Shown here piece after piece: positions 23,398-40,605 of a DNA stretch of 64,000 bases. Positions within the stretch are counted from its first letter, which is position 1; each line of letters starts with the position of its first letter. The stretch is from an uncultured Verrucomicrobiae bacterium (GTDB lineage: Bacteria; Verrucomicrobiota; Verrucomicrobiia; JADLBR01; CALLMV01). The notes under the pieces are model-generated. The model was not told where the DNA came from. It made no database searches and saw nothing but the letters and a program-made list of their open reading frames with translations. Position numbers and translations under genes: made by a program. The stretch lies in the NCBI GenBank assembly GCA_938005615.1, contig CALLMV010000011.1:3025-67024 (forward strand), in the 5' to 3' direction.

Positions 23398-23434
23398 AGC
23401 TGAATGGGCTATCACACCCTACGAGCCTTTTGAC

Positions 23435-23506
23435 TGGGCGGTGAGGGGTTCGAACCCCCGACCCTCCGAGTGTAAATCGGATGCTCTACCACTAAGCTAA
23501 CCGCCC
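23435..23506 (-). tRNA. tRNA-Val(TAC)
   Basis: Minus strand GGGCGGTTAGCTTAGTGGTAGAGCATCCGATTTACACTCGGA...GGTTCGAACCCCTCACCGCCCA. Confidence 0.96.
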
Positions 23507-23510
23507 TGAG

Positions 23511-24002
23511 TTAAAAGGGGACGTAAGCAGCACGTCCGTCTCCCTTCACCTCAATTATACCGTTGCCGTGGATTGCGACAACCTCAAAAAAAATGGTATA
23601 TCGTGCTGCATCTATTTGATTGAGATCAAAGTAGCGCACACCGGTAGAGGCGAAATGAAAGTCACCTGCCAATTCGGGCTGTCGTCGCTCTATGGCCGGG
23701 CATTGGAAGTGCATTTTTCTGATCCCATAGGGTGCCAGAAGGTGTGCCACCATGTCCATATGTGTTGGGAAGTAGTCATTGAGATTCACGTTGTCCGATT
23801 TATGTTCCGCCACATAGCTCAAACTAGCTTGCCCGAGCTTGCCGCGAAGTGAAAGGCATTGGACAAAGTTAGTAGTATTCATAGCCGAATTTACTACTGG
23901 GAAGGACAAAGCGACTAAGATTGATATCACTGAAATGGTAACCAGGGCCTCCACGAGGGAAAGCCCTGTCTGCAAAGCGAACTGCCTGCTTCTCACAGGC
24001 AT
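23511..24002 (-). CDS. Prepilin-type N-terminal cleavage/methylation protein with H-X9-DG motif
   Basis: Class III signal G|LSLVEALVTISVISILVAL, FQCP, and C-terminal H-GNGIIEVKG-DG. Confidence 0.88.
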   Translation of the reverse strand: MPVRSRQFALQTGLSLVEALVTISVISILVALSFPVVNSAMNTTNFVQCLSLRGKLGQASLSYVAEHKSDNVNLNDYFPTHMDMVAHLLAPYGIRKMHFQCPAIERRQPELAGDFHFASTGVRYFDLNQIDAARYTIFFEVVAIHGNGIIEVKGDGRAAYVPF

Positions 24003-24008
24003 GAGAGT

Positions 24009-24632
24009 TTACCGGAAGATTTTGACTCTACCGATGCCTTGGAGGGCTTGGCCGCCAGCAACTTCGATGATGGTAGTGCTGTTTCCTGTCACGTCTATCG
24101 GTCCCATAGATGACTGTAGAGTAAAGACGGAGAATATCTGGGAGTTATCGTCGCGATAGTTGATCGATCTGAAAAATTTTCCCGCAGTCACTTTCACATT
24201 TTTGAGAATCCCTTCCTGAGTAAACTGAACATCTGAGCCGCTGCCTATTTTTTGTGCGGAATAGCTAAATGTGTAGCTTATATCATTTGCCCGGTTGATA
24301 ATGGGGCTTGCCAAGCTAGGGCCAGGTGACAAGGGAAAAACACTAAACGTGGCTGCAGAGATGGGATTAGATAACCCGCCCAAGAACATCCTTCCATTTG
24401 CGCCGCCGGTTACAAAACCAAACTCTGTAAATGCCAAAGAAAAGTTAAACAGGCCAGATACGTTTATCCCAAAACTTGGACCTGGGTTGTAGATGTGAAA
24501 AACGGGGAAAACGATCGCCGAGTAACTACCTACGGCGCCTGAACCAAACCTGAAGCTTTGTGCTTGGGATGAGGTGGTAGCCGTTGCCAGTATTGCTGCT
24601 GCTAACAATGTGGTTAATGTCATTTTTTTCAT
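24009..24632 (-). CDS. Secreted beta-rich hypothetical protein
   Basis: Sec signal MKKMTLTTLLAAAILATATTSSQA|Q, AAGGAG upstream, G/S/F-rich mature part. Confidence 0.85.
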   Translation of the reverse strand: MKKMTLTTLLAAAILATATTSSQAQSFRFGSGAVGSYSAIVFPVFHIYNPGPSFGINVSGLFNFSLAFTEFGFVTGGANGRMFLGGLSNPISAATFSVFPLSPGPSLASPIINRANDISYTFSYSAQKIGSGSDVQFTQEGILKNVKVTAGKFFRSINYRDDNSQIFSVFTLQSSMGPIDVTGNSTTIIEVAGGQALQGIGRVKIFR

Positions 24633-24646
24633 TTATCATTTCTCCT

Positions 24647-27049
24647 TTAGTTGAGTGATTTGAGCTGTTCGAGAGTAAGTGTTTCTATAGGGTTAAGAAA
24701 TTCACCAGTTGGAGTGATTAGTCTTGGGCTAACGAAAATCATGAGGTTTTTCTTGATAACTCTACTAACTTTAGACCGAAAGAGGCGACCAATCAAGGGA
24801 ATATCTCCAACAATCGGCACTTTGTCGTTGATGGTTTGATTATCTTCGCGAAGAAGTCCGCCAAGTACGAGTGTTTGTCCGTCAAAGACCTGCACGCTCG
24901 TGCGTATGGTGCGGGTATTGAAAACAGGCATATTGATGATATTAGGAGTCAAAGGCAAATTAGCATTTCTGTTTAAGGGATTTAAAATAGGCTCACCGTA
25001 ATTGATAAACCCTTCGAACTCTGTAACTTCTGGGATAAGATCCATGCTGATAGTAAAGTTGTCAGGACCAACTTGGGGGCGGACATCGAGGACGACACCG
25101 ACTTCTTTTTCTTCAAACTCTGCTGGGAAGGAAGGAGCAACTACGGGTGTAGCAATTTGGGTTCCTCCACCTCCGCCGCCGCCTCCTCCACCAGTGTTAT
25201 TAAAATTTTGGGGAAATTCTGGCTTGTCGTACTCGCTGGGGTAGTAGAAGCGGCGGATAATTTTGATATTAGCGCGCTCGCCGGAGCGTGCGATGACTTT
25301 GGGTGCGGAAAGCACGTCAAAGCCATTCTTCTGCGAGAGTGCGCGTATCATGACGTCGAAATTGTATCCCACGGCCTGAACGGCAAAGTTCAGCTTGTTA
25401 GAGATGGGATCAGTGTTTGCGCCGCGATTGGCGTTTAGCAGGGCATCAATGGAGCGGGTAGGCAGGTCGAGAGAAGTTCTCAAACCGTTGAGGTTGTTGA
25501 GGCCGTTCATGTTATTGTCGGAGAGGTCGCCACGGGCGTAAGTATAATTGCCGTCCTTGACGACGTTCATCGCGGTTGAAATTTCGTCGAGATCGGACTG
25601 ATTAATTTCAGTAAATTTAGTCTCGATCATGACTTGGGGTACAACTTCGAGGTCTGAGCCAATGAGCATGTCTATGATTTCGATTTGCTGCGGGGTGTTG
25701 CGGACGGTGAGCCGTCCAGTCGCGCTGGAATAAACGACGGATGAGCCCGCGGCATCAAAGCTCACACCACGACTAATGAGTGCCTGTTTGACATCAAGAG
25801 TACCAGCTGTGGTAATGTTGTCCTGGAGTTGCACCCTGCGACGTCTGCCGGTGCCCGTCTCTTCTGCTCTGGCGGCTGAAGTGGTTAGGAAGTCGGGGCG
25901 TACTAGGTAATCCTTGGTGATGAGTTGGTTGGTCTCGGCGGTCAGTGGAACAATGGTGATGGCGAATTCGCCAATTTGAAATTTAACGTTGGCAAGTTGG
26001 CAGGCGTATCTGAGCACTTCGAGCATGGGCATATCGGTCACAGTCATCGTCACGTCTCTGGTCTCAGTATCACCTACGCGGGATACGAAGTTGAATCCGC
26101 GTTTGTCTGGAGAGGGGTCAAGCTCTTTGCTGCGGATGTTCAGGAAGTTGATGACGTCGCCGATGCTGGCTTGATTGAAGGAGACACGTGGAACGATCAT
26201 TTGGGATAGTCTCCGCTCGATGGATTGGGTGCTGCTTTGGTCTATCACAGTACCCCCACCTTGGTAGGCAGCCACGACCTCCTGAGGAATTGGGCTTTCC
26301 CAGGCAGCGTTAACTTCGGTGAGTCGCTCCTCACGGGTGCTGAGTTTGGCAGCGCGAGCGTGGCGCATTTTTTGGTCGTAAACACGGCGGAGCATTTGCC
26401 GTGCTGTTCTGTTGTAGGGGTCAACTACGAGCACTTGTTGAAACTTGCTCTCTGCAGCATCAAACTGACCTGTTTTGAGGAAAGCCTCGCCCTCGGAGAG
26501 TAGGTTCTTTACTTCAACGATGCTGCGCATGAGGCGCGGAGTGACTGCTGCACCTTCGGGCCAGATGACTTCATTATCCGGACCGACTTCCACGCCCATA
26601 GCCGCATAGAGCTCGCGGCGCAAACGCAACACACGGGAGTTTTCAGGCGCGTAAGCGTAGGCTTCCTCGAGGCGTTCACGGGCGATGTTTAGGTCATCGG
26701 CGACGAGTGATTCTCGGGCTAGTTCGACAAGGCAGATGGCTATGCTGTCGTAGATGCGAGCCTGGAGTTCCGCGGAGCGAGGCGCAAGAGGCGGCAGCAG
26801 AGTTGAAGCCGAGCGTAAAATGGGAAGTGCCTCGCTGTATTTGTTTTGCGCCATGAGATCCACAGATTCGTTGTAGAGTTCCTGGGCACGAACGGCGGCA
26901 TCCTCTCTTTTTTGTCTTTCATTTTGGACAATTTGCGTGGCTGTTTGAGCCTCGGCAGGGATGCTCTGAAGCACTGCCAATCCAACCAGGGTGATGATAG
27001 TAACTGTGGGTTTCATATTTTGAGTTGTGTTGTTTTTGATTGTTCTCAT
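24647..27049 (-). CDS. Secretin, Amuc_1098-like (copy 2), with N-terminal TPR-like region
   Basis: QVMIETKFTE, LSAPKV, GVVLDVRPQV, EFEGFINYGEPI, DGQTLVLGGL, DKVPIVGDIPLIGRLFRS. Alternative start at 27016. Confidence 0.93.
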   Translation of the reverse strand: MRTIKNNTTQNMKPTVTIITLVGLAVLQSIPAEAQTATQIVQNERQKREDAAVRAQELYNESVDLMAQNKYSEALPILRSASTLLPPLAPRSAELQARIYDSIAICLVELARESLVADDLNIARERLEEAYAYAPENSRVLRLRRELYAAMGVEVGPDNEVIWPEGAAVTPRLMRSIVEVKNLLSEGEAFLKTGQFDAAESKFQQVLVVDPYNRTARQMLRRVYDQKMRHARAAKLSTREERLTEVNAAWESPIPQEVVAAYQGGGTVIDQSSTQSIERRLSQMIVPRVSFNQASIGDVINFLNIRSKELDPSPDKRGFNFVSRVGDTETRDVTMTVTDMPMLEVLRYACQLANVKFQIGEFAITIVPLTAETNQLITKDYLVRPDFLTTSAARAEETGTGRRRRVQLQDNITTAGTLDVKQALISRGVSFDAAGSSVVYSSATGRLTVRNTPQQIEIIDMLIGSDLEVVPQVMIETKFTEINQSDLDEISTAMNVVKDGNYTYARGDLSDNNMNGLNNLNGLRTSLDLPTRSIDALLNANRGANTDPISNKLNFAVQAVGYNFDVMIRALSQKNGFDVLSAPKVIARSGERANIKIIRRFYYPSEYDKPEFPQNFNNTGGGGGGGGGGTQIATPVVAPSFPAEFEEKEVGVVLDVRPQVGPDNFTISMDLIPEVTEFEGFINYGEPILNPLNRNANLPLTPNIINMPVFNTRTIRTSVQVFDGQTLVLGGLLREDNQTINDKVPIVGDIPLIGRLFRSKVSRVIKKNLMIFVSPRLITPTGEFLNPIETLTLEQLKSLN

Positions 27050-27055
27050 GAGCGT

Positions 27056-29473
27056 TTATTTCCCGCGAGTCTTTTCGGGTGCGGCTTCTGCTATGGTTTT
27101 TGCTCCTCCGAGAGAGGTTGAGATTGGTCTGCCAGACCAGCGTTCGACACGGTCGAAGACAGGCGTGTTGGAAAAGAGATCGTCATCGCGTCTGCCTCTG
27201 ACGTTAAAGGGGTCTCCGTCCGGTTTTACAAGGTCGCAGGTCACAAAGATAATGAGATTTTTCTTAAGACTCTGTTCGATTTTCGAGCGGAACAGGCGGC
27301 CGATCAGCGGGATGTCTCCGAGGAAGGGGATTTTATCGTTGACCGTCTGGTAGTCATCTCGGATGAGTCCTCCGATGGCGACGGTCTGGCCGTCGGATAT
27401 TTGCACTTTGGTTTCTATGGAGCGTAGGTTGAAGACGGGTTTATTAATGACGTTTTGAACCAGCGGTGTGACTTGGCCTGTGGTAAAATCCAGCGTGGAG
27501 ATGGGGGATCCGTAGTTGATGAATCCCTCGAAGTCCAGCACGCGAGGGGCTAGAGTCAGGTCAATAGTTAAACGGTCTGGAGCCACTTGCGGTGTAGCAT
27601 TAAGAATGACGCCTGTATCCTCTTTGGTAAAAGTGGTGGGGGTGGAGGGGACGACGAGGCGGATGGCGGTTCCGTTAGGCAGCAGGGTGGTGTTTCCGTC
27701 AAACTCTGCGTTTTCGTATTCATCAGGGAAGAAGAATTCGCGGATGATTTTAATTTCAGCTTCCTGTCCGCTGCGGACGGTTACACTAGGCACTGCGAGT
27801 AGGTCGCTGCCAGTTTTTTGTGAGAGGGCGTAAACTAGCATTTCAAATTCAAACTGGGAGAGAGTTAGCCCGGCTTGGATGGCATGGCCAATGGGGCCGA
27901 GTGCACCCAGCGCCTGGCCCAGCAGGCCGTCAATGGCGTTTTGGACGATTGCCTCTCCGGCCACGCTGAGCTCAGGTGGCAGGGGGGCAAAGATGTCTGT
28001 GGGATCGAAACGAGGCGCTGAGGTGCGCAGACCAGGCGTGTCGGTCAGTTGGCTTTGTCCGCGACCTTTGCGGTTGAGGTTCCACCTGAAGGACATTTCT
28101 TCAAGGTCGTTTTGATTCACTTCCATGAAGCGGGTGGCAATGTTTACTTGGGGGATGAGTTCGTTGTCGTCTTGCAGGGCTTGTTCAATGAGCTGAATAT
28201 TGCTGAATGTGTTGGCAACAATCAGCTTGCTGCCGATGGGCTGGTAAGTGGCAAAAGAGCCAGGAGCGTCAAATGTCACGCCCAGTTGTGAGAGACGTTC
28301 TGTAACTTGTCTGCGCTGATCTTCGATGTTATCCGCAGCGGGTGGGAAAAACCCGGATGCAACGCGAAATTCTCTGGTGATGAGATCTTCGATGTTTTCA
28401 GCAGAAGGAGCGATGTAAACGGCGAATTCTTCTACGCGGTAGATGAGTCCAACTTGGTCCGCGATAAGGTCGAGCACTGCGCCTAAGGGGAGATTACTGA
28501 CGGCAAGTGTGACAAAGTTCGAGGCCTCAATGGAGGGCTTGACAATCAGGTTAACCCCCTTGCCTTCAGGATCTGCAATCCGCGCCTTGTCGCGGAGTAG
28601 TGCAATTGCTCGCTCGAGCTCGGTTCCATCGAAGTTGACTTGATCAATGATGATTGAGTTGAGTTTTTCTGTGATTCTGGCGATGTTGGTGATCCGCTGG
28701 CTACGGCCACCGCCCATTTGGGCGTCACTCACAAGAGTCGTTTTTCTGATGGGGTTACTCCACCCTGCTTCAACTTCGTACAGCATGCGTTCGCGAGTCT
28801 GGGTTCGTGCCTCCAGGTAGTAACGATTTTTTAGCTTAGCAACTTCCTTAATTCCTTCGCGTGCGGCAACATTATATGGGTCGAGCACGAGGATTTTCCG
28901 GTAGCGGTCGTCAGCTTTATCAAACTGGGAGGTGGCACGAGCGTTGGCAGCTTCATCGAAGTAGCGATTCACTCGGCTGAGCGCGATCAGAAATTCTTGA
29001 GTCATGGCCGGAGCAATGTCTGCAGGAATTTCTTTAACTGGTATCCCGAGTTCTGAAGCTGAAACCGCATAGATTTTTTGGAGGTCTCTGTTACCGGGGT
29101 CGACGGCTAGTACCTCTTTGGAGAGGTCGTGAGCAGTCTGATAATCACGTCGTGCAAACGCCTGGCGTGCGAGCTGAGTGTTAGCCAGGGTGAGACCTGT
29201 GACTGCTCGGCGATAGACTTCCTGAGTCGCAGGTGCCTCTGTGAGATTGTTGATCACGTAACGGAAGCGGTTGGCGGCCGCAGCGTATTGCTCTGCTGCG
29301 AGTAGCCTGTTGCCGTGAACCACTGCTTCGCGAGCCACATTTAACAATTGAACTCGGCGAGCGGTCTCCGAGCTTTGCGCAAATGTATTATGAGGGATTG
29401 CTAAACTCAGCATCATTAGCGTGAGGGGGATCACCCCGGATGAGATGATTGTGTGGTGGCTATTTTTGTTCAT
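27056..29473 (-). CDS. Secretin, Amuc_1098-like (copy 1), with N-terminal TPR-like region
   Basis: QVNIATRFME, DFEGFINYGSPI, DGQTVAIGGL, DKIPFLGDIPLIGRLFRS. Signal peptide from 29473 (29500 possible). Confidence 0.93.
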   Translation of the reverse strand: MNKNSHHTIISSGVIPLTLMMLSLAIPHNTFAQSSETARRVQLLNVAREAVVHGNRLLAAEQYAAAANRFRYVINNLTEAPATQEVYRRAVTGLTLANTQLARQAFARRDYQTAHDLSKEVLAVDPGNRDLQKIYAVSASELGIPVKEIPADIAPAMTQEFLIALSRVNRYFDEAANARATSQFDKADDRYRKILVLDPYNVAAREGIKEVAKLKNRYYLEARTQTRERMLYEVEAGWSNPIRKTTLVSDAQMGGGRSQRITNIARITEKLNSIIIDQVNFDGTELERAIALLRDKARIADPEGKGVNLIVKPSIEASNFVTLAVSNLPLGAVLDLIADQVGLIYRVEEFAVYIAPSAENIEDLITREFRVASGFFPPAADNIEDQRRQVTERLSQLGVTFDAPGSFATYQPIGSKLIVANTFSNIQLIEQALQDDNELIPQVNIATRFMEVNQNDLEEMSFRWNLNRKGRGQSQLTDTPGLRTSAPRFDPTDIFAPLPPELSVAGEAIVQNAIDGLLGQALGALGPIGHAIQAGLTLSQFEFEMLVYALSQKTGSDLLAVPSVTVRSGQEAEIKIIREFFFPDEYENAEFDGNTTLLPNGTAIRLVVPSTPTTFTKEDTGVILNATPQVAPDRLTIDLTLAPRVLDFEGFINYGSPISTLDFTTGQVTPLVQNVINKPVFNLRSIETKVQISDGQTVAIGGLIRDDYQTVNDKIPFLGDIPLIGRLFRSKIEQSLKKNLIIFVTCDLVKPDGDPFNVRGRRDDDLFSNTPVFDRVERWSGRPISTSLGGAKTIAEAAPEKTRGK

Positions 29474-29535
29474 TTGGGTGATTTTGTACTGTGGGTTCAT
29501 AAACTCAAGAACGGATCTTTGGAATAATGGTTGTC

Positions 29536-30597
29536 TTAAAAGAATATTTCGGTAGAAGTTTCTGTAGGTTGTTGTGGGGTGGGTTGGGGTGCTGTACGCG
29601 ATATCCACTCCTCTTCATGGGGAAGTGGCGGATGAAGTTCAAATCTGGCTCCAGTAGTAATTTCCTCTACAATTGCACTAGATTGGCCATCTTTCTCACC
29701 AACGCTAATGAGTTTAAACTTCTGGCCGCGTAGTAAGAAATCTCTGGAGACTCGAGCTTCTATGATTTCGGAGACGGGTCCAGCGGAAAGGTCGCGCAAA
29801 AACATGATGGATTCAGGGGAGTCAATTTCTCTGCCTAAAATAAGCGTCACCTTCTCCCCAGTAATCGTGTGTTGGAGATCCAGCTCTGAGTCATCGAATT
29901 CTCGATCTCCTTCTATTCTTGGGTCGAAACGCACTTCTACTTTACGCCGAAATTGACCGACCTTCCATTCTTCGATCACATCACCGAACACCACGAAAGG
30001 GCTCCTGTTTCTGCGATCTTTTGCGTCTTGAAAGTTAAGCTGATAATTCATCACGCCATCAAGTTCGTTGTATGCCCGGAAAATCATGCGGAATGGGATT
30101 TTTCTGCTGTCCACTATACGAAGCTTAGTGATATGAGGCGGATGGCTCTGGGAATCAGTCGGATTAGTGCCAGCTACGAATTCATCTTTGTTGAGGAAAC
30201 CATCACCATCGGGATCTTGAATGCCAACAAAGGGATCAGCCAGCGACAGGGAGTATCTGGACTTCCACTCACGAGGGATGCCGTATTTGTCAGTGGCTTG
30301 GGCATCGTAAACTTTGATGAGACCCTTATCAGGGAGAAACTCAATGGGCCGAGAAACGACGAGGCGATGGGTGCTTGCTGGCTCCTGCCAAGGGGAAAAA
30401 GCAGAGAACTGACGGGTGAGGTTTGAAAATTTCCCATCATCAGGATCCTTGGGCAGCGGCACTTCGCGCATTGTAGCACTTATTTGTCCCAATGAATAGT
30501 TTCCTGGCTGAATAGCAACAAATACAGCGATCACTGTGAGGATGACAAGTGCCAGAGATAGTGAAAATTTCTCCCAATGCTGGACGATAATATTCAT
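29536..30597 (-). CDS. Amuc_1099-like pilus system protein
   Basis: N-terminal TM; DPDGDGFLNKDEFVAGTNPTD...HP motif; ATGA overlap with the upstream gene; matching position in the cluster. Confidence 0.78.
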   Translation of the reverse strand: MNIIVQHWEKFSLSLALVILTVIAVFVAIQPGNYSLGQISATMREVPLPKDPDDGKFSNLTRQFSAFSPWQEPASTHRLVVSRPIEFLPDKGLIKVYDAQATDKYGIPREWKSRYSLSLADPFVGIQDPDGDGFLNKDEFVAGTNPTDSQSHPPHITKLRIVDSRKIPFRMIFRAYNELDGVMNYQLNFQDAKDRRNRSPFVVFGDVIEEWKVGQFRRKVEVRFDPRIEGDREFDDSELDLQHTITGEKVTLILGREIDSPESIMFLRDLSAGPVSEIIEARVSRDFLLRGQKFKLISVGEKDGQSSAIVEEITTGARFELHPPLPHEEEWISRTAPQPTPQQPTETSTEIFF

Positions 30598-31601
30598 TTT
30601 ACCTGCTCCTGCGAATTTTTCCAACCGATGTAATCAATCCTCATGGCCACTCTAATGGTCTCATTGCCGACTATGATGACTGGAGCAATGCTACCAGGCA
30701 AGATTCCCGGGATAGCCGATGTGCCGCCGGCGGTCTGAGTTCTGCCGGCAGTAGCAGTTCCGGCTGCAGCAGCTCGAAGCTGCTCGATCGTGGGTAAACT
30801 GCTCTTAGAGTTTTCGATGTCCATAACGCGAATAACGTAATATGGATTCGGTGGGTTATTTTCTCTCTTCTCGCTGGTAATATCTGGCGGCTTAGAAAAG
30901 TGATTGACAATTCTGCGCAATGAACTTTCGTCAGATTCAAATTCGACGACAAAAGGAAGAATTTCGTAGGAGAGATTTTGCGAAAAACTCACCGGCGGGA
31001 TGTAGTCAAGATCTACGTTCTGGGCTCTGACACCCGTAGCAGCATCTAAGGCACCACCTGGGGGCGAAGTCTCGATGAGCATGCGACGTACAGCGTATAT
31101 ACGTGACACTCGGGTTTCGATGAGTTTCTCTACGATATTTTCCACGAGTTTAAGCTGTTTGGAGAGTTGCGCGGTATCTTCTGCCACAGGGGTATTAGTC
31201 GCGTAGAGGGAGAATCCAAATTGGAAGTTTTCCGGTATGGTGATCCCAGCGTTTTGGCAATCCTCTATTAATTTTTGTTTTGTTCTAGCAAAAAGGGATT
31301 GGAACATAGTACCCGAAATCTCCTCGGTGTTTATTGCTGCGGCGGCGAGCGCATCAAGGCTTGGACGAATATCTTTTTCCAACCGATTGTTGTTTTCTTG
31401 CAGAGTGTTCAAATTGGCTTGACTGGGAAAGTTGGGTCTGGATTGAAGACGGTTGTGCTCAGTTCTGGTCTGTTGAAGTGACGCTTCCAATTCGACAACT
31501 TGCTGGTTGGTCAAATACCAACCGAAAGAACCGGCAGCAATGATTATCGTAGAAATTCCGGCCATCGCCAGTATTGCAGGACTGAGTTTATTCTGTGCCA
31601 T
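30594..31601 (-). CDS. Amuc_1100-like pilus system protein (PilO-like position)
   Basis: N-terminal TM, coiled coil, FQFGFSLY...P...QL, YEILPFVVEF, C-terminal IVGNETIRVAMRIDYI. Lies downstream of the PilM-like gene. Confidence 0.78.
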   Translation of the reverse strand: MAQNKLSPAILAMAGISTIIIAAGSFGWYLTNQQVVELEASLQQTRTEHNRLQSRPNFPSQANLNTLQENNNRLEKDIRPSLDALAAAAINTEEISGTMFQSLFARTKQKLIEDCQNAGITIPENFQFGFSLYATNTPVAEDTAQLSKQLKLVENIVEKLIETRVSRIYAVRRMLIETSPPGGALDAATGVRAQNVDLDYIPPVSFSQNLSYEILPFVVEFESDESSLRRIVNHFSKPPDITSEKRENNPPNPYYVIRVMDIENSKSSLPTIEQLRAAAAGTATAGRTQTAGGTSAIPGILPGSIAPVIIVGNETIRVAMRIDYIGWKNSQEQVK

Positions 31602-31602
31602 G

Positions 31603-33387
31603 TCAGGGAATGAGTGAAATTGGTTCTTTTAAGGGTATAGTAATCTCAAAACGCAACGCAATGTTGCGGTCAGCCGCATCGACATCGCGTTTAATGAGAC
31701 CTTGTTTGTCAACCTCTTCCTTGGTAAGTGCAAAAGGACTATTCGCAGCAAGGATATTTTTAACGAAATCATCTACACGAGATTCTCCCATGAGTCCCAC
31801 GTCTTCTTGGGAATCCATTAGACTGGAACGGTCGTAAGACTCATAAAAGCCGGCAAGTCGGATATGACTGATGAGCGCCTCGGTGCTTTCTGTTGTTTGG
31901 ACACGACGACCTGTTCGCGTTTCCGTCAAAGCCTGGTTGGGAAGGAATGTAACGGGCTTCTCACCGCTCAGAGGCTCTATGTCGGTAAGCCAAATTCCCG
32001 TAACTGCATTTTCGTTCAAGTATTCAAGCAATTCGATCCAGCGTTGTTTATCGATCGAGAGGGCCAGGATTTGGCTGCCGATGTTTTTTAAGGTGGCTGC
32101 CCTTTTTTCTTCAACCTCCATTTTTCTGAGGATGGAGTTGCGCTCAGAGAGCTCTGTTTGCAGTGCATTTTTTTCTGCTGCAACCACGTTTGATTTAAGC
32201 AAATTCGCAACGATGGGAACGGCAAAGGCCGCAGCGAGAATCAATGATGTTGTTGCAATCAGCGTGGATTTCTTTCTGGCTTCAAGTTTGTTACGCACAG
32301 AATTTGGCACGAGATTGATTTCTACAGGAGTCTGAGGAAGAAATCTTGTGGCCAATCCCACTACTGTTCCGAACCTGTGGGCCGTTTCGGCAAACTTGGC
32401 AGTATCTGCGCCAGGTGCAGCTTCAACATTTCTTAAGGGGTTAAAGTATTCAACTTCACAAGAAAGCTTTTCTTTCAAGAAAAGATCCATGTAGGCTAGA
32501 GAAGCTGTACCCCCAGCGAGCAAAATCTTACTGGGACTGCTACCGCCGTGCTGAGTGCGATAAAAACTAATCGACCTGACTATTTCTGCATGCAGTCTGG
32601 TCATGACGGTGCGAATGATTTTGGAAACCCTAGCGGCCACCTCGTCGGGGGGGTCTTCATAGCCTCCTCCCAAACCAACAAAGCCTTTGCCTTGTTTAAT
32701 AATCTCGGACGCAGCAAAGGGCTCCTTCAAGTCTTGCGCGATAGACTGGGTGATTTGATTGCCTGCGATAGGAACGCCCCGGATAAAGATTCTTCCATTT
32801 TCTGAAAAGACCAATTGAGTGGCCTTGGCGCCCATATCAACAAAAAGAATACACCCGTCAACATTCGGATAGTTAAACCTCAGAGCGTTGTAAGAAGCCA
32901 GGGGAGAAACGTCCACAAACTCGGCCAAGTTGCCTGAGGCCACGACAGCAGCATTGATTTGGTCTAAAATGTCAGATTTTATCGCGACAATAATGCACTC
33001 CAGGTCGCTAGATGTTGCCCCGGAAATGAGTTGGTAGTCCCAGACAACTTCGTTCATTTGAAAAGGCACATTTTGCTGAGCCTCAAATTTGACCATCTGG
33101 CTGATTTGAGACGGAGCAGTAGCTGGAAGACGAACGATTCTTGTAAAAACCAGTTGGCCGGATACTGAGAACGCCACCCGCGCGGACTTCACACCAATCT
33201 GTGAGCAAATAGATTTCAACACGCCAATTAATGAAGCAAATGTCGTTTCATCAGTAGACGCAAGCTCGAGGGGTTGCTCCAACAGGTTTATGACTCGCAA
33301 TCCACCACCCTGACTGATCTCAAAATGTCCGGCATGGACTGAGTGCGTACCGATATCGAAAGTGATAATTGGAGATTGGCGGCTCAT
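31603..33387 (-). CDS. pilM: PilM-like actin-fold pilus assembly protein with PilN-like C-terminus (Amuc_1101-like)
   Basis: DIGTHSV, FEAQQNVPF..EVVWDYQ, VDMGAKAT, EIVRSISFYRTQ, LAGG, then INLVP + TM + coiled coil. Confidence 0.9.
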   Translation of the reverse strand: MSRQSPIITFDIGTHSVHAGHFEISQGGGLRVINLLEQPLELASTDETTFASLIGVLKSICSQIGVKSARVAFSVSGQLVFTRIVRLPATAPSQISQMVKFEAQQNVPFQMNEVVWDYQLISGATSSDLECIIVAIKSDILDQINAAVVASGNLAEFVDVSPLASYNALRFNYPNVDGCILFVDMGAKATQLVFSENGRIFIRGVPIAGNQITQSIAQDLKEPFAASEIIKQGKGFVGLGGGYEDPPDEVAARVSKIIRTVMTRLHAEIVRSISFYRTQHGGSSPSKILLAGGTASLAYMDLFLKEKLSCEVEYFNPLRNVEAAPGADTAKFAETAHRFGTVVGLATRFLPQTPVEINLVPNSVRNKLEARKKSTLIATTSLILAAAFAVPIVANLLKSNVVAAEKNALQTELSERNSILRKMEVEEKRAATLKNIGSQILALSIDKQRWIELLEYLNENAVTGIWLTDIEPLSGEKPVTFLPNQALTETRTGRRVQTTESTEALISHIRLAGFYESYDRSSLMDSQEDVGLMGESRVDDFVKNILAANSPFALTKEEVDKQGLIKRDVDAADRNIALRFEITIPLKEPISLIP

Positions 33388-33390
33388 TGT

Positions 33391-34077
33391 TTACTTGAGG
33401 CTGGTTTTGTAAGGGCGATAGTATCTATCCCAAAAATCGTTCATCCACGGTGTTTCCGAAATAGGAAGAAGCACACCGGTCTTTCCTTCCTTCCTAAACC
33501 AATCGGGGTTATCTCCTGCACGACTACCTCTTTCGCGAAGCTCAACTTCAATAACAGCCTTACTATTGTAGGACACTTCAACAGCAACATTCGACGCACT
33601 TCTAATTCTGCTTTCTCCGCCAAATCTTTCTACCCAAGTTGGTGGGATAAACGCAATGAAAGCCATTTGGCGAGCGGGTTTGAGATGAGCGAAGCTTTGA
33701 GACAAGGAAAACACTTGCCTTTGATCGAATTCCACATCATCCCGGCTCGGCTCAGGAGTAAGCCAATGAATTTTAACTTCTAAATCTTTGATGTAGTCCA
33801 GACGCCTTATCAAATCTTCAGGTATGGCTTCAATGACTACTTCAATCTGCACCCAGTTCACTATGTCAATTAGTCGTGTGCGAACGCTCGTAGAGCGTGG
33901 GGGCTCTACCGATTCTATGGTTATTGATCGAGGTTGAGCTGAAAATCCTCTGACGGTTTCCACTCCTTGGGCGCTTGAGCTGAGAGGTGAAATCATAAGC
34001 AGCCCCAAGAGCAGATTCATTAGAAAAATAGGCATTAAAGTTGATACTCGGATGACGGATTTGGTTTTGAGGACCAT
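33391..34077 (-). CDS. Amuc_1102-like exported pilus-associated protein
   Basis: Signal peptide, WVQIEV, C-terminal GVLLPISETPW...WDRY. First gene of the cluster; start uncertain (34077/34035). Confidence 0.72.
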   Translation of the reverse strand: MVLKTKSVIRVSTLMPIFLMNLLLGLLMISPLSSSAQGVETVRGFSAQPRSITIESVEPPRSTSVRTRLIDIVNWVQIEVVIEAIPEDLIRRLDYIKDLEVKIHWLTPEPSRDDVEFDQRQVFSLSQSFAHLKPARQMAFIAFIPPTWVERFGGESRIRSASNVAVEVSYNSKAVIEVELRERGSRAGDNPDWFRKEGKTGVLLPISETPWMNDFWDRYYRPYKTSLK

Positions 34078-34142
34078 GTCTCTGATTAGGCGAGAACACT
34101 TTCTACGGTCAATGCGGAAAAATTGTTTGCTAAAAAAATTCA

Positions 34143-34676
34143 CTAAATTGTAACCAAAGAAACAAGCCGTTCGTAGGGCACCGTCTCCACCCTCATCTGA
34201 AGCATTTTGTCTGTATCAAACACGAAACGAGCTGTGAGAAAATGACCGTCCAGTACAGCCGGCAGCCAGTATCTATCGTCCTGCCACATCCGCTCAAAGG
34301 GAATTCGTGAGACTTCTACCCAAAACGGGATAGCCTCATCTGTTTCTCTCAAATTTCCTGTTAACGAGTTAGCAAGAAAAACGTGACACCGCATGGCATA
34401 ACCGTCAGTAAACTGAAAATCGATCGAAGCATGGTGTGATGGTGACACCGGCTCGACACCGACTTCTTCACGCGTCTCCCGCACTGCGGCCTCGATTGCC
34501 GTTTCTCCCGGCTCTAAACGACCACCGGGGGCGTTGACTTTCCCGGCACCTAGGCCGCGCTTTTTTTCTATGAGCAAGAGCTTGTCTCCACTGCGAATAA
34601 ATGACAGGACGGCTGTCTCCCGTGGGATCCACCCTCGCCAATCAAAATCCGCCCATCTACTGCTGTTGCAGATCAT
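34143..34676 (-). CDS. NUDIX hydrolase (8-oxo-dGTPase/MTH1-like)
   Basis: KKRGLGAGKVNAPGGRLEPGETAIEAAVRETREEVG Nudix box; MWQDDRYWLP. Confidence 0.92.
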   Translation of the reverse strand: MICNSSRWADFDWRGWIPRETAVLSFIRSGDKLLLIEKKRGLGAGKVNAPGGRLEPGETAIEAAVRETREEVGVEPVSPSHHASIDFQFTDGYAMRCHVFLANSLTGNLRETDEAIPFWVEVSRIPFERMWQDDRYWLPAVLDGHFLTARFVFDTDKMLQMRVETVPYERLVSLVTI

Positions 34677-35251: not shown

Positions 35252-36631
35252 TTACTCCGATAAAAACTCTCTTGGATCTGTAATGTAACCTGTCAAAGCA
35301 GACGCCGCCACAGTATATGGCGACGCCAAGTAAACACGCGACTCCTTATGCCCCATCCTACCAGGAAAATTTCGATTTGTTGCTGAAATGCAGCTCATCG
35401 GCTTGTTAATCCTACCAAATGTATCCTGCGGACCGCCAAGACATGCGGCGCATGACGCATTCTCCGTCATCAATACGCCTGCGCTCTCAAGTCTTTCCCA
35501 AACAGATTTCCCTTCCCATACGATAGACTGCAGCTCCCGCACTACCGTCGGGGTGGCTGGCACCCCAAAAGTGTCAATTTTCACCCGCCTGTTTCCGATT
35601 ACTTTTGCGAAAGCCAAGAAATCTGATGTTTTTCCTCCGGTACAAGAACCTATATAGGCTCTATCCAGCGTGACTTTATTCAAGTCCTTAGCCAGAGCTC
35701 TGTTGCCTGGATCTGGGTGTTGGGCAACCGTCGGTTCAATTTTGCTTAAATCGAATTTCCTATCGTAGCAAAAATGCTGATCCCGATCAAGTTCGACAGG
35801 CGTATATTCCTGACGCGTGCCGTTTTTTCTTGTGGATTCTCTCACATAATCCTCTGTCAGCCGGTCATAAGGAAATACTCCGTTTTTTCCTCCTGCTTCA
35901 ATCGCCATGTTCGCAATAGTCATTCGGTCATCCATATTCAGCGATGCGACCCCTGGTCCTTCGTATTGCATTGCACGGTAAGTGGCACCATCAAAACCGA
36001 TATCCCCAATGATATGAAGAATGACGTCTTTGGCCATCACTCCAAATGGCAACTCACCTTCAAGCCAGAAGCGCATTGTTTCAGGCACTTTCAGTAAGAT
36101 TTTACCGGTGCCTAATACAAACCCGGCATCAGTGTTACCGATTCCAGTGGCAAACATGTTGAAAGCGCCTGCCATACAAGTATGAGAATCAGTGCCTACC
36201 AGAATTTCACCGGGTCGACAGTGCCCCTTTTCAGGCAGAGCGGTGTGACAAACACCTGCAAAAGATGAACCGTATTGGCGCTTGAGCTGCCCTTTAGAAG
36301 GATCAAACTCCCACTTGGCATCAGCGCCGTCCCCATCAATTACATCGTAAAAGTAGGGAATCCCTTGTTCCCTGACGAAATTGCGCAAAATGTCCACATT
36401 ACGATTCGATTTACTGTCGGCTGTAAAAATGTAGTGGTCAGGAATGATCACTACACGAGATTTGTCCCAAACCTTAGCATTCTGTCCAAACTCCCGTTTA
36501 AATACCCCGATCGTGCCAGGTCCGCAGACATCATGCGTTAGTAAAGTATCGACATTCACCCAGACGTTTTCCCCAGCGGAAACACTGGATCGACCAGAAG
36601 CACGCGCCAGTAATTTTTCGGTAAGAGTCAT
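35252..36631 (-). CDS. leuC: 3-isopropylmalate dehydratase large subunit
   Basis: TLTEK, HDVCGPG, PDH, GVCH, GTDSHTC, IGSCTGG, CAACLG, TNRNFPGRMG. Confidence 0.93.
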   Translation of the reverse strand: MTLTEKLLARASGRSSVSAGENVWVNVDTLLTHDVCGPGTIGVFKREFGQNAKVWDKSRVVIIPDHYIFTADSKSNRNVDILRNFVREQGIPYFYDVIDGDGADAKWEFDPSKGQLKRQYGSSFAGVCHTALPEKGHCRPGEILVGTDSHTCMAGAFNMFATGIGNTDAGFVLGTGKILLKVPETMRFWLEGELPFGVMAKDVILHIIGDIGFDGATYRAMQYEGPGVASLNMDDRMTIANMAIEAGGKNGVFPYDRLTEDYVRESTRKNGTRQEYTPVELDRDQHFCYDRKFDLSKIEPTVAQHPDPGNRALAKDLNKVTLDRAYIGSCTGGKTSDFLAFAKVIGNRRVKIDTFGVPATPTVVRELQSIVWEGKSVWERLESAGVLMTENASCAACLGGPQDTFGRINKPMSCISATNRNFPGRMGHKESRVYLASPYTVAASALTGYITDPREFLSE

Positions 36632-36976
36632 ATTGCTCTTTTAAAGCCACAGAAAAAAAAAGCAATGAAACGCTAAAAAAAAGTTAAAGAAAGATTTCAC
36701 AAAAAACGAACTGTTAGTCCACAAGTCTACATATAAAAATATCATAAACTTGACTAAATAGTTTGCTATGTTATTTTAAGTCTAAATTCTGAAATTTATG
36801 TCTTACAACGTAATTTTGTTAAAGCAGATGAATGCAGATCTTATATTTTGTAGTCCAATCAGTAGGTTTAACACTTTTATCTATTCAGAAGTTATTGCAA
36901 GAATTTCAATTATATGCAACCGTGCATGGCCACAATTAAAATAAAACTTAGACAGATAAATGCCGTAAGAATCTGA

Positions 36977-38599
36977 GTGAAAATCAATAAATATTCACGT
37001 AAACGAAATGGGTTGATAATTTTTTCTGTGACTATTATTATTTCTGTTTCTATTGTTTTTAAAAAAAAAGATATTGCTAAGTCAATAAATGATCTAAGCG
37101 GACTATTTCATTTATCTCAAGCGCGTAGATTGTTATCTGATGTTAAATACGACTTAGCCTTAAATCACCTAAAAAAAGTAATCACAATTCATCAAGATTC
37201 AGTAGAGGCTTGGGAAATGATTGTTCTTATATCCAAAGAAATCAATGACGAACAACTTTTGCTAAGGGCGTTATCTAAACTATCAGTCTTAGACCAAAGA
37301 AGCAAAGCTAATGCAGTTGAGTTTCTCAAACTAGCACGTAATTCCAAACAAAGTTACTTGGCAGCACCTCTTTTAAGTTTAATCATAGACTCTCACCCAT
37401 CCCGTCCAGAAATTCTTCATGAGAGTGCACTTATACTAATTTCTCTTGGTCTGACAAATTCTGCCGGAAATCTTCTTGGCGAAGCTATAAAACTTAACCC
37501 TGAAAATAATGAAATTATTTTTGCAAAATCTACACTTGATTTGCTATCTGATAACAGTCAAACTCTTGCAAGAGCCACTAATAGCTTAGAGCAAATTCGA
37601 CTAACTGACAAAAAATTTTCAATACCAGCAACAATTAATTTGATAAACTATTTCAGAGATAACAACACTACAAGAGCTTTAGAACTATTAGCGCAAGCCA
37701 AAAAAATCGAACCAGATAACTGGGCGCTAAGACTTTTGGAATTAGACCTCTCGTACAAGGCCGGTGAAGAGGAGTTGCCTCTGCTTTTCGAAAATATACT
37801 ACCTCTGGCTGATTCTGAAGAAAAATTTATTGAATTAATCATCAGAGTCGCAAAATATCAAAGTCCAGAAGCAGCTCATAATTTCATTAACAACTTAACT
37901 ACTGATAATATAACAAGCGCAACAAAAGATTACTTACGCTTACCGGTATTCTGGTTAACTAATGACTATAATTCGATCTTAGATGCGACTGAAGATCTAT
38001 CAATCAGAATTGATGAAAAGAGAGCTGCTAACATGTTGTTGTGGCGCGTTAGAGCGTTAACAAAAATTAATCCAACACTAGCAACTAACACCTTAAATAA
38101 GTTTATTAACAAATTTTCAAACAGCCCCAAAATATTAATAGATTCTGTTGAATTATTGAAATCTTGGAATTTACAAGAGTACACCAGACCCGTTTTACAA
38201 AGATTGGTTGATTCACGTGGTCCCTATCTGTACTATAGCTTAGTTTTGTTATTAGAGCAGGCTCATTTAGAGGGAGATATCCTTTTGCTACTCAATACAA
38301 CTTCTCAATTGCTTGAAATACAGCCAGATAACCCTATTTTACAGTTTAACTTTGTAACATTAGCGCTAGAAGCAAATGTCAATATTCCTAAAGCAGAAAA
38401 AATTGCTGAGTCACTTTATCGTTCCTACCCGAATGAGCCAGGATTGCTTCATCTTTACGCACAGGCATTGGCAGCTAATGGAAGACAAGAAAAAGCTTTA
38501 GAGTTATACGATTCATTGTCTAGCAGTGACTTGAAAACAACACCGATCATCTTTTCATATGAGGCATTATTACTCAAAAATCTTCATGATATGAAATAA
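36977..38599 (+). CDS. Membrane-anchored tetratricopeptide-repeat protein (AT-rich)
   Basis: N-terminal TM, then helical repeats (EAIKLNPENN, QAKKIEPDN, LLEIQPDNP, YAQALAANGRQEKALELY). Confidence 0.8.
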   Translation: MKINKYSRKRNGLIIFSVTIIISVSIVFKKKDIAKSINDLSGLFHLSQARRLLSDVKYDLALNHLKKVITIHQDSVEAWEMIVLISKEINDEQLLLRALSKLSVLDQRSKANAVEFLKLARNSKQSYLAAPLLSLIIDSHPSRPEILHESALILISLGLTNSAGNLLGEAIKLNPENNEIIFAKSTLDLLSDNSQTLARATNSLEQIRLTDKKFSIPATINLINYFRDNNTTRALELLAQAKKIEPDNWALRLLELDLSYKAGEEELPLLFENILPLADSEEKFIELIIRVAKYQSPEAAHNFINNLTTDNITSATKDYLRLPVFWLTNDYNSILDATEDLSIRIDEKRAANMLLWRVRALTKINPTLATNTLNKFINKFSNSPKILIDSVELLKSWNLQEYTRPVLQRLVDSRGPYLYYSLVLLLEQAHLEGDILLLLNTTSQLLEIQPDNPILQFNFVTLALEANVNIPKAEKIAESLYRSYPNEPGLLHLYAQALAANGRQEKALELYDSLSSSDLKTTPIIFSYEALLLKNLHDMK

Positions 38600-38843
38600 A
38601 CTCAAATATATTTTAAGCATTTTTGAAGCATGTACTAGAAGTCATATTATCTAGTATATTGTTTTTTTGGTTATCAGGTTATGATAATTACTAAATTGTT
38701 AATAATACTTTCTAACTAATTTAGACTTTATAACATTGAGAATTTTTACTTCCATCATTAGTTAGCCATTTTCAACACTTTATGTTGAGTATTTTTTTAA
38801 TTTGCTTCTTTCCCGTTTCTTAATAATATTAAAAGACCTATAC

Positions 38844-39623
38844 CTAAAACCCTATACTGTTGCCTCCGTCGACTGGCAAATTTACACCAGTAATAAATGA
38901 GGCCGCATCGGAGCACAAGAATACAGCCGCGAAAGCAACCTCCTCCGCTTGGCCCATGCGGCCGAGCGGAGTCCTTCCAAAAACTTTTGCCTTGCGTTGA
39001 GGATCTGCATTTAATGCCTTGTCTGTCATGGCTGAGTAAATGAATCCGGGTGCAATAGAGTTTACTCGAATGCCATGTTCGCCCAGCTCAGAAGCTAGTT
39101 CGACAGTAAGTCCTAGCACAGCGGATTTTGAAGCGGCGTATGCTGCGACTCGTGTCAATCCATACATAGCTGCCATAGAGGTAATGTTGAGGATAACACC
39201 TTGTTTGCGAGGCAACATTTTTTTTACAACTTCTCTTGTCAAAGAAAATAGGCCTAAAACATTCGTTTGCTGAATGTTGGCACATTCTTCGTCTGTTATC
39301 TCCCAAAAATCTTTTTTTAGATTAATACCTGCGTTGTTAACTAGGATATCAATATCACCAAATTTAGTTGCTACGTCCTGCACCAAATGAGGAATTTTAG
39401 TCAAATCGGAAACATCGCCTACTACGTATGAAACTTCGTCACCTATTTCCTTCGATGCTTGCTGAAGAACTTCTTCTCTACGTCCTGTAATAACTACACG
39501 TGCACCAGCAGTGACAAAGGCTTTAGTGATGGCGAGTCCTATTCCAGTTCCACCACCCGTTACCAAAGCTAATTTTTTCTCCAAAGAAAATTTTTTTATA
39601 AAATCGAAATTTGTTTCTTTCAT
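38844..39623 (-). CDS. SDR-family oxidoreductase (gluconate 5-dehydrogenase/KduD-like)
   Basis: ALVTGGGTGIG, NNAG, YAASK, RTPLGRMG, VDGG. Confidence 0.93.
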   Translation of the reverse strand: MKETNFDFIKKFSLEKKLALVTGGGTGIGLAITKAFVTAGARVVITGRREEVLQQASKEIGDEVSYVVGDVSDLTKIPHLVQDVATKFGDIDILVNNAGINLKKDFWEITDEECANIQQTNVLGLFSLTREVVKKMLPRKQGVILNITSMAAMYGLTRVAAYAASKSAVLGLTVELASELGEHGIRVNSIAPGFIYSAMTDKALNADPQRKAKVFGRTPLGRMGQAEEVAFAAVFLCSDAASFITGVNLPVDGGNSIGF

Positions 39624-39687
39624 AAAGCAATATTATTTAGTCTTTTTTAGTATTGAACCAAAATATATTTCGGGAGCAGCCTTATTA

Positions 39688-40605
39688 TTATCTAAACTCG
39701 TGAATGACTGGATTCCCCGCAAAGTAGTTGTTAAGGTTTTCAAGTTCCGAAAGAAGTTGACGCCTTAAAATTACTGCTCTGTCGGATAGTTTTTTTTGCT
39801 CAAGTGCGTACTCTTCGCGACCCTGAATGGTCTCGATCCTGATGGGATCAAAACCCAGCTCACGCAAATCGTAGGGGCTGGCTCGCATGTCCAATTCCCT
39901 TGCACTAATGGCCAAATTCAAGCTGTGCAGAACCGTTTCAGAACTCACCCAAGGGTGAAATTTCATTGCCCACTTGTACAAATCCATATTTACGTGTACG
40001 CAACCGGGTTGCTCTAATTGATATCGAGTGCTGGAATTGGGCTGTAAGACGTTAAGCGGACGAGCTTCTTCTGAAAAAAATCGGAATGCATCAAAATGCG
40101 AGCAATGAATTTCTCTGCTTTCAAGAAATTTTTCCAGTTCATGTTCACTCACTCTTAAACTGTAATTATGTCTCAAACTGCTTGAACGATAGACCATCGC
40201 CCATTCGTGCAAACCAAAACATCCGAAATTAGCTTTTTGATTATTAATCGCACGTAATAAACCGATCACCCACAGCAAGGAATCTAGCCTCCTCTGAGGA
40301 AATTGTTCGCAGTCTATCCAGGCGCCTTCTTCAGTAAAATGCCAAGCTCTATCTGAAAAAACATCCTCTCTACCCGCACCTTCTAGTACAACGCCTATGC
40401 CGGGAGTCCACTCCCTGAGCCGCGCAGGCCGCACGCTGTAATATTCAAATAGAAAATCATAAACAGGATGCTTTTTGCCGGCAGCTCGACGAATTTGATG
40501 CTGCTGTAACCATGGCTCAACTTGATGTAAGTACGATATTCGTAAGTCTTGCCACTCTTCAAACTTAAGACTACGCATCGAGTATTGGAATCCTAAAGAA
40601 TGCAT
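39688..40605 (-). CDS. Conserved uncharacterised protein (family often auto-labelled 3-methyladenine DNA glycosylase)
   Basis: HPVYDFLFEYY, FGCFGLHEWAMVY, CSHFDAFRFF, EQPGCVHVNMDLYKW, LDMRASPYDL. Confidence 0.8.
   Translation of the reverse strand: MHSLGFQYSMRSLKFEEWQDLRISYLHQVEPWLQQHQIRRAAGKKHPVYDFLFEYYSVRPARLREWTPGIGVVLEGAGREDVFSDRAWHFTEEGAWIDCEQFPQRRLDSLLWVIGLLRAINNQKANFGCFGLHEWAMVYRSSSLRHNYSLRVSEHELEKFLESREIHCSHFDAFRFFSEEARPLNVLQPNSSTRYQLEQPGCVHVNMDLYKWAMKFHPWVSSETVLHSLNLAISARELDMRASPYDLRELGFDPIRIETIQGREEYALEQKKLSDRAVILRRQLLSELENLNNYFAGNPVIHEFR

Follow-up and report, generated by a model that had tools for sequence, protein, structure and literature searches.

The genome of an uncultured Verrucomicrobiae bacterium (NCBI GenBank assembly GCA_938005615.1) encodes two full-length secretins side by side in an operon of the type known from Akkermansia as the Amuc_1098-1102 locus. 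We analysed a stretch of 64,000 nucleotides from contig CALLMV010000011.1 (positions 3,025 to 67,024), here called the window, and coordinates refer to the window unless another locus is named. The source is a marine metagenome-assembled genome (MAG) of 1.67 Mb in 51 contigs that is 75.7% complete. The secretin pair is fixed in the order to which this genome belongs, both copies are under purifying selection, and tandem pairs of the same family have arisen independently elsewhere in the class. We regard this descriptive part of the account (the anatomy of the cluster, its conservation, the selection on both copies and the independent recurrences) as close to certain. How the two secretins work is a matter of interpretation, in which a single machine using both is weighed against two separate channels.

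Two diverged secretins in tandem

The upstream gene of the pair (secretin A, the "up" copy) encodes a tetratricopeptide repeat (TPR) secretin of the Amuc_1098 family and lies at 29608..27056 on the - strand (850 amino acids, aa). Its probable start is Met37 (29500) or Met46 (29473), preceding a signal peptide. Secretin B, the "down" copy, is a TPR-secretin of the same family at 27049..24647 (-, 800 aa), and only 6 nt separate the stop codon of secretin A from the ATG of secretin B. Both proteins contain the Pfam Secretin domain (PF00263) over model positions 1-168 of 169, with 124.0 bits for A and 124.3 bits for B against a cut-off of 27.5. The NCBI model Amuc_1098_fam (NF042912) was matched by secretin A with 532.2 bits (positions 26-804 of 805) and by secretin B with 584.8 bits (positions 18-803 of 805), in both cases under the equivalog cut-off of 750. 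Judged by these sequence scores, both secretins are distant members of the wider Amuc_1098 family, below the NCBI equivalog threshold. Scores against the models of other secretin types are also below the respective cut-offs: 110.8 and 110.0 bits, over the C-terminal part only, for the PilQ model TIGR02515 (cut-off 284.35), and 123.2 and 134.6 bits for the GspD model TIGR02517 (cut-off 351.35).

Secretins A and B share 33% identity across 739 aa (E 3e-123) and are collinear along their whole length. The motifs FEGFINYG.PI and GDIPLIGRLFRS are common to both. An initial annotation, made from the sequence alone, had reported two intact but well-diverged secretins 6 nt apart with exactly these motifs in common, and our comparison agrees with it on each point.

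The AlphaFold2 model of secretin B (mean predicted local distance difference test score, pLDDT, 77.4) begins with a signal peptide and a helical TPR domain (34-249), followed by two alpha/beta N-domains (273-368 and 377-464). The C-terminal half consists of a long hairpin (472-498), a low-confidence segment (499-549) and the secretin barrel (552-778). A Foldseek search with this model returned Vibrio cholerae PilQ (6w6m) as the best match (E 9e-22), followed by GspD, InvG, BfpB, RcpA and pIV. The solved secretins PilQ, GspD, InvG, RcpA and pIV thus have the same barrel fold and C-terminal core (Foldseek E 9e-22 to 3e-11), and phmmer searches with the two sequences against solved secretins gave E-values of 3e-18 and weaker. 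To judge by their titles, none of the solved secretins listed belongs to the Amuc_1098 family or comes from a locus with two secretins.

Conservation in the order and recurrence in the class

All nine genomes of the order in our collection carry an adjacent pair of Amuc_1098-family genes. In each of the eight relatives of the window's genome, the genes follow the order Amuc_1102, Amuc_1101, Amuc_1100, Amuc_1099, up copy, down copy, either completely or for the part that is held by the locus. The best match of every up copy in these relatives is secretin A (37-48% identity) and that of every down copy is secretin B (41-47%). The open reading frames (ORFs) of the two copies overlap, abut or stand no more than 19 nt apart in the eight relatives (as called from the longest ORFs), a spacing that fits coupled translation. 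A tree of 66 proteins places the order's up copies in one clade (9 rows) and its down copies in another (8 rows), each with support of 100 in the Shimodaira-Hasegawa-like approximate likelihood ratio test (SH-aLRT; quick IQ-TREE search, no bootstraps). The ratio of nonsynonymous to synonymous substitution rates (dN/dS) between congeneric genomes ranges from 0.04 to 0.17 in the up copy and from 0.11 to 0.12 in the down copy. Given the two fully supported clades, the presence of the pair in all nine genomes and the low dN/dS, we conclude that the duplication predates the order and that both copies have been maintained.

The two clades are alike in the barrel and distinct in front of it. When the 17 copies from the order are aligned, the last ~100 columns contain 37 strongly conserved positions that are the same in both clades and 2 that are conserved but different. 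Between the N3-like hairpin and the barrel, each clade has a fixed motif of its own, SFRWN...TDTPGLR in the up copies and AMNVVK...NNMDGLNxLDGLRS in the down copies. All 18 positions that are invariant in the family (52-sequence alignment), including those of the C-terminal core, are kept in both secretins. Thus, the paralogues share a ring-forming core and differ in conserved periplasmic loops. Secretin B also has a surface loop with a run of about 10 glycines (window 25163-25195, -). This loop was considered as a special gate, and the idea was rejected because the loop is not conserved among the down-copy orthologues.

The initial annotation had allowed for the duplication being an assembly artefact, or for one copy being degenerate. 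Such an explanation could draw on the origin of the sequence from a MAG of 51 contigs, and on one relative in the order (G008, 83% complete; L022:6040-8434) in which the down secretin is divided between two overlapping ORFs of 640 and 201 aa, by either a frameshift or an assembly error. Against it, the stretch was recovered in three sequencing runs (X1, X2 and X3), which share one marine study and one of which may be the MAG's source sample. A single contig of 22,372 bases from run X2 covers positions 23400-34300, contigs of runs X1 and X3 bridge the junction between secretins A and B, and no indels are listed in the three runs. Both ORFs are open across 800-850 codons, dN/dS is far under 1, and the pair recurs in nine of nine genomes. 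An artefact or a decaying pseudogene is therefore a highly improbable source of the pair. The assembly of run X1 breaks into short contigs exactly across 24544-25259, a segment that X2 reads through; the break falls over part of the secretin B gene and suggests strain variation there.

Duplicated Amuc_1098-family genes are common in the class. Of 301 genomes sampled, an Amuc_1098-family match at E<=1e-80 occurs in 213, and about half of these (107, by a hand count of the per-genome table) hold two or three such matches, with at most three candidates scored per genome. Tandem pairs were identified by coordinates in families f11, f17 (G207 only), f20, f26, f28, f51 and f52, and were found as well in f32, f38, f41, f46 and f48 (5 of 5 genomes checked). 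The copies in the Akkermansia-like family f4, which scores above the equivalog cut-off, and in f36 are either separated by hundreds of kilobases or placed on different contigs, and the tree shows duplications within each of these two families. Families f52, f11, f26, f51, f28 and f20 share a separate duplication, in which an up clade of 6 rows (support 100) and a down clade of 6 rows (support 100) are joined at 96. One duplication common to the window's order and the group of f48, f46, f32 and f41 was not rejected by the approximately unbiased (AU) test (26-row subset, LG+G4; p-AU 0.074), so we give the number of independent duplications as at least three. The survey of twin-secretin synteny with a phylogeny, suggested in the initial annotation, thus finds the pair fixed in the whole order and tandem pairs recurring by at least three duplications.

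A second secretin core stands in tandem at only 5 of 79 named loci (mostly Chthoniobacterales and Verrucomicrobiales), many of which end early at contig ends. Thus, the twin pair is lineage-specific and not universal.

Two further observations concern the family as a whole. A very recent tandem secretin duplication in another family (G207, L035:8210-13479) has end branches of 0.025 and 0.028, and provides a snapshot of the first step of the duplication process. The first N-domain region of the Amuc_1098 model (about positions 241-360) matches many other ORFs in several relatives, from proteins of 140-226 aa up to a 2485-aa repeat protein (examples are G030:C16:676206-676835 and G004:C90:27222-27524). 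These matches indicate that the first N-domain of Amuc_1098 is a mobile domain.

The operon and the motors encoded elsewhere

The secretin genes belong to a block of eight ORFs on one strand (window 34143..23511, -) that are separated by a few dozen bases at most or overlap slightly, and all eight were recovered as initially annotated. An Amuc_1102-like exported protein (34143..33391, -, 250 aa) is encoded by the first gene, as it is at the head of the cluster in the relatives; the alternative start at 34077, where the initial annotation had put it, is likely and yields a signal peptide. It matches Amuc_1102_rel (NF042424) with 30.1 bits (E 3.2e-07, model positions 14-180 of 186; cut-off 55). 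The second gene encodes a PilM-PilN fusion of the Amuc_1101 type (33387..31603, -, 594 aa), with a cytoplasmic actin-like PilM domain, one membrane helix and a periplasmic part. PilM was identified above the cut-offs of both models used, TIGR01175 (137.6 bits, cut-off 133) and Pfam PilM_2 (PF11104; 118.7 bits, cut-off 27), with matches in the N-terminal part of the fusion (residues 4-348 and 11-348). Amuc_1101_fam is matched over positions 1-606 of 608 with 501.8 bits, below its cut-off of 650. This fusion is the single PilM_2 match in the genome.

The PilO position is occupied by an Amuc_1100-like protein (31601..30594, -, 335 aa) that matches Amuc_1100_fam (NF038287) with 124 bits over positions 12-325 of 326 (cut-off 180), and the solved Amuc_1100 chains 6lad, 6kny and 6laf with phmmer E-values of 5e-06 to 2e-05. 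At the PilP position is an Amuc_1099-family protein (30624..29536, -, 362 aa) with an N-terminal membrane helix and a Ca-binding-like DxDxDG stretch; its 83.9 bits against Amuc_1099_fam (NF042425, cut-off 50) make this the sole Amuc family over its cut-off here. The segment DPDGDGFLNKDEF of this protein (window 30154-30216, -; residues 137-157) gives weak TSP3_bac and EF-hand matches. Sequence searches of the PDB with the Amuc_1102-like protein (at E<=10) and the Amuc_1099-like protein returned chance-level rows only. Taken together, NCBIfam models for all five Amuc families match in the Akkermansia order, in keeping with the earlier reading of the cluster as Amuc_1102-1098-type. Because four of the five family matches fall under the NCBIfam equivalog cut-offs, the Amuc families of this cluster are distant relatives of those of Akkermansia.

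The Akkermansia locus Amuc_1098-1102, whose products are pili-like proteins, has the same families in the same order: an Amuc_1102-like protein, PilM-type Amuc_1101, Amuc_1100, Amuc_1099 and a TPR-secretin. Unlike the Akkermansia-like cluster, which holds one secretin, the cluster described here has the secretin twice in tandem, followed by genes for a beta-barrel protein and a prepilin. In Akkermansia, the outer-membrane secretin Amuc_1098 is more abundant than any other protein of the outer membrane (PMC4960237, in part). The genes amuc_1099-1102 have been named MUL2 and show conserved synteny in aquatic Akkermansiaceae and in further Verrucomicrobiales (PMC13174399, in part). Figure 2B of that article draws a "secretion system channel protein" in the MUL2 synteny. 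MUL genes are required for the accumulation of mucin products in the cell (review PMC12418764, in part), and the locus type has been linked to the uptake of host and algal glycans (PMC13174399 and PMC12418764, both in part). Extrapolating from the Akkermansia locus, we consider it probable that the machine encoded here is used to attach to polymeric glycans and to take them up.

The operon type is therefore already known, as the Amuc_1098-1102 or MUL2 locus. We found no description of a conserved twin secretin in the full-text literature searched, a search that did not extend to the figures and supplements of PMC13174399 or to the primary MUL paper, which may show it. The initial annotation had proposed an undescribed system; this does not hold for the cluster, but does, within that literature, for the twin secretin.

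Lacking from the cluster are an ATPase, PilC and a prepilin peptidase, as the initial annotation had stated when it proposed a variant machine. The pilMNOPQ operons of Pseudomonas and Myxococcus likewise do not normally encode ATPases, PilC or the peptidase. Because the cluster parallels the pilMNOPQ operon, the lack of these genes is normal, and with ATPases and PilC identified elsewhere in the genome it is no ground for a variant machine. Like the type IVa operon, the cluster encodes a PilM domain, a PilN-like membrane part, two small bitopic or periplasmic proteins and a secretin. It differs from pilMNOPQ in that PilM and PilN are fused, the proteins at the PilO and PilP positions are of the Amuc_1100 and Amuc_1099 families, and there are two secretins. 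These secretins, moreover, have an N-terminal TPR domain and score far below the PilQ model TIGR02515 (110-111 against 284 bits).

As in organisms with pilMNOPQ, the ATPases and PilC are encoded at other loci. On contig C17 (L072:9446-14079) we identified two PilB/GspE-type ATPase genes in tandem, with MshEN domains, and a PilC-type gene after them, so that the motor is duplicated in tandem, as the secretin is. About 1.3 kb from these motor genes, on the opposite strand, is dprA, a neighbour that hints at natural competence. A third PilB/GspE-type ATPase is encoded on C24 and a second PilC-type gene on C5. Contig C4 carries two tandem PilT-like, retraction-type ATPases of 467 and 352 aa (L075:7575-10050). 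A prepilin peptidase was not found in the MAG, which, at 75.7% completeness, is not evidence of absence.

Two genes follow the secretins. The first encodes a small protein with a signal peptide (24632..24009, -, 207 aa), which the initial annotation had called an orphan and a candidate cargo. It is not an orphan: positional homologues with 18-28% identity lie directly after the down secretin in seven of the eight order relatives and in G016, and the family has a conserved GxY...GLF start and a basic C-terminus. A profile search of 1.84 billion proteins yielded only 23 representatives at E<=0.001, and a word-index search returned only the protein itself. A role as cargo has neither support nor evidence against it. 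The AlphaFold2 model, of modest confidence (pLDDT 62.5), is a small 8-stranded beta-barrel. The model's best VIA Z values are 9.6 to designed barrels and 8.0-8.5 to barrels of the OmpA/NspA/OprF type and a Dot/Icm porin, the level of a common arrangement, and therefore we claim no family for it. We regard the protein as accessory and lineage-restricted.

The last gene (24002..23511, -, 163 aa) codes for a type IV prepilin-like protein that has an H-X9-DG motif in its C-terminal part. Its N-terminal cleavage/methylation motif (G|LSLVE, with Gly-1 and Glu+5) places it among the prepilins, in which such a motif precedes a hydrophobic helix, and the Glu+5 is invariant in nine of nine aligned homologues. 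The prepilin models fall slightly under their cut-offs (Pfam N_methyl, 17.0 against 21.2 bits; TIGR02532, 13.9 against 16.3 bits). The H-X9-DG near the C-terminus (HGNGIIEVKGDG in the window) is present in seven of the nine aligned homologues, and its Asp is invariant. The annotation of this gene as an H-X9-DG pilin is thus supported by both motifs. We take its class to be the one called "H-X9-DG prepilin-like proteins"; no NCBIfam model named for H-X9-DG matched the gene at E<=0.1. A prepilin gene follows the beta-barrel gene in six of the eight order relatives. In the other lineages with tandem secretins, the second secretin closes the cluster and a dephospho-CoA-kinase-like gene comes next.

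The block is bordered downstream by a convergent gene for release factor 3, and upstream by co-oriented genes of the aconitase family (leuC/leuD-like) and a NUDIX gene. Farther upstream, G+C falls to 0.37-0.38 at window positions 36000-40000, compared to about 0.5 around. The genes there encode a 540-aa TPR protein, a short-chain dehydrogenase and a 305-aa protein without a Pfam family.

One machine or two

We interpret the cluster as the verrucomicrobial counterpart of pilMNOPQ, coding for the half of a type IV pilus-like machine that comprises its alignment and outer-membrane parts; the genes for motor ATPases and platform proteins lie elsewhere in the genome. The secretin gene underwent a tandem duplication before the radiation of the order, and purifying selection has preserved the two copies. 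Each paralogue has evolved its own conserved periplasmic loops, with the barrel-forming C-terminal core the same in both. We infer that the paralogues are non-redundant, co-expressed parts of one machine, and that both dock on the single set of PilM-N, Amuc_1100 and Amuc_1099. In the simplest form this would be a mixed ring, or two rings in a fixed proportion.

Joint action in one machine is favoured because the two secretins share an operon with minimal or overlapping spacing in all nine genomes, because a single alignment set is available for docking, because no divergence is seen in the barrel core, and because lineages have repeatedly kept tandem pairs for long periods. We consider that both secretins acting in one machine, as a mixed ring or as rings in a fixed ratio, has about an even chance of being correct. 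Freshly duplicated subunits of homomeric rings are generally expected to co-assemble unless selected otherwise, and a mixed ring would have been fixed by the ratchet that turns duplicated homomeric ring subunits into heteromers. The initial annotation had suggested a hetero-oligomeric or alternative-gate secretin. A bolder form of our proposal, that the paralogues co-assemble into one obligate hetero-oligomeric secretin ring, would make it the first natural one and a route taken several times independently in Verrucomicrobiae; we consider it less likely than not.

A pair fold of the N3-plus-barrel parts of secretins A and B gave an ipSAE of 0.42, compared to 0.00 for the best of three controls, and was graded as weak support. 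The mark that it passes is reached by 116 of 157 solved complexes and by 2 of 215 mismatches, and at an ipSAE of 0.60 or under by just 18 of those 157 and by both of the passing mismatches. Partner pLDDT was at least 66, and contacts agreed between runs to at least 73%. Structures of homomeric secretin rings exist, so the pass may stem from the resemblance of the two proteins to these solved rings.

Several results weigh against joint action. Each entry among the solved secretins listed is a ring built from a single protein, in 12-15 identical chains; the initial annotation had called characterised secretins homo-oligomeric, which is true of all these entries. The genome encodes three PilB/GspE-type ATPases, two full PilC-type platforms and two PilT-like ATPases, so two channels could serve two different machines. 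Akkermansia-like genomes (G149, L042:7147-9672; also L025 and L027) have a second Amuc_1098-family TPR-secretin that is unlinked and without pilus neighbours. The initial annotation had given the Akkermansia cluster one secretin, which holds for the cluster but not for the whole of these Akkermansia-like genomes. From its relative position in G149, the unlinked Akkermansia copy would be Amuc_1638, a locus tag that is not mentioned in the literature text searched. There, the two copies do not look like parts of a 1:1 ring, although they stem from a separate duplication. To these points can be added the split down copy of G008, a promoter and terminator scan that stands at background (21 and 18 sites, compared to 15.6 and 16.0 expected) and marks no usable operon boundaries, and a search for sequencing runs containing the stretch, which listed three DNA runs and no RNA run.

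The same evidence bears on the possibility that the pair forms two separate homo-oligomeric channels, each for a different machine of the type IV filament family or a different cargo (for example, pilus extrusion versus uptake of DNA or polymers, or secretion of protein), which are neighbours for historical reasons only. The motor and platform genes on C17, C24, C5 and C4 would suit such a division, as would the homomeric state of the solved secretins listed, the conserved paralogue-specific loops, which suggest different partners, and the unlinked second copy of the Akkermansia-like genomes. Moreover, these two are the only secretin genes found in this MAG. However, the MAG is 75.7% complete, and fuller relatives in the order hold further secretin-domain genes outside the Amuc_1098 family that could serve the other machines (G001, for example, has 4 secretin-domain matches, including a 768-aa ORF on another contig). 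Myxococcus xanthus provides a precedent, with three secretin paralogues (gspD, pilQ and mxan_RS15055) that have separate roles and are all expressed (PMC12475490, in part), but those paralogues belong to different systems and loci, whereas secretins A and B are the closest relatives of one another, lie in the same operon and have just one set of alignment proteins between them. Independent channels would not need a fixed gene order, yet the spacing is tight or overlapping in nine of nine genomes; there is only one set at the PilM-N, PilO and PilP positions to dock on, and no insulating divergence in the barrel core. We regard separate channels as a serious possibility, though one that is probably not correct.

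Alternatively, one copy may not be a working conduit at all, and could be a dosage duplicate or a structural protein of the envelope. In Akkermansia, Amuc_1098 far exceeds every other outer-membrane protein in abundance (PMC4960237, in part), so the family may double as an envelope scaffold. Duplications also recur in the class, including the very recent one in G207, with its end branches of 0.025 and 0.028. Duplicates kept for dosage alone, however, would not last in so diverged a state (33% identity), each with a separately conserved set of motifs throughout the order, and all 18 invariant positions of the family are retained in both secretins. An explanation of this kind is improbable.

Secretins are the outer-membrane gates of type II and type III secretion, type IV pili, competence and filamentous phage export. 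What is new here, as far as the literature searched goes, is a conserved twin secretin in a known operon type, which we have not found in print. The pair offers a natural test case for the question of whether a secretin ring can be heteromeric or, alternatively, of how one alignment complex can serve two gates. Since a second, unstudied paralogue is present in Akkermansia-like genomes, the finding also bears on work on Akkermansia.

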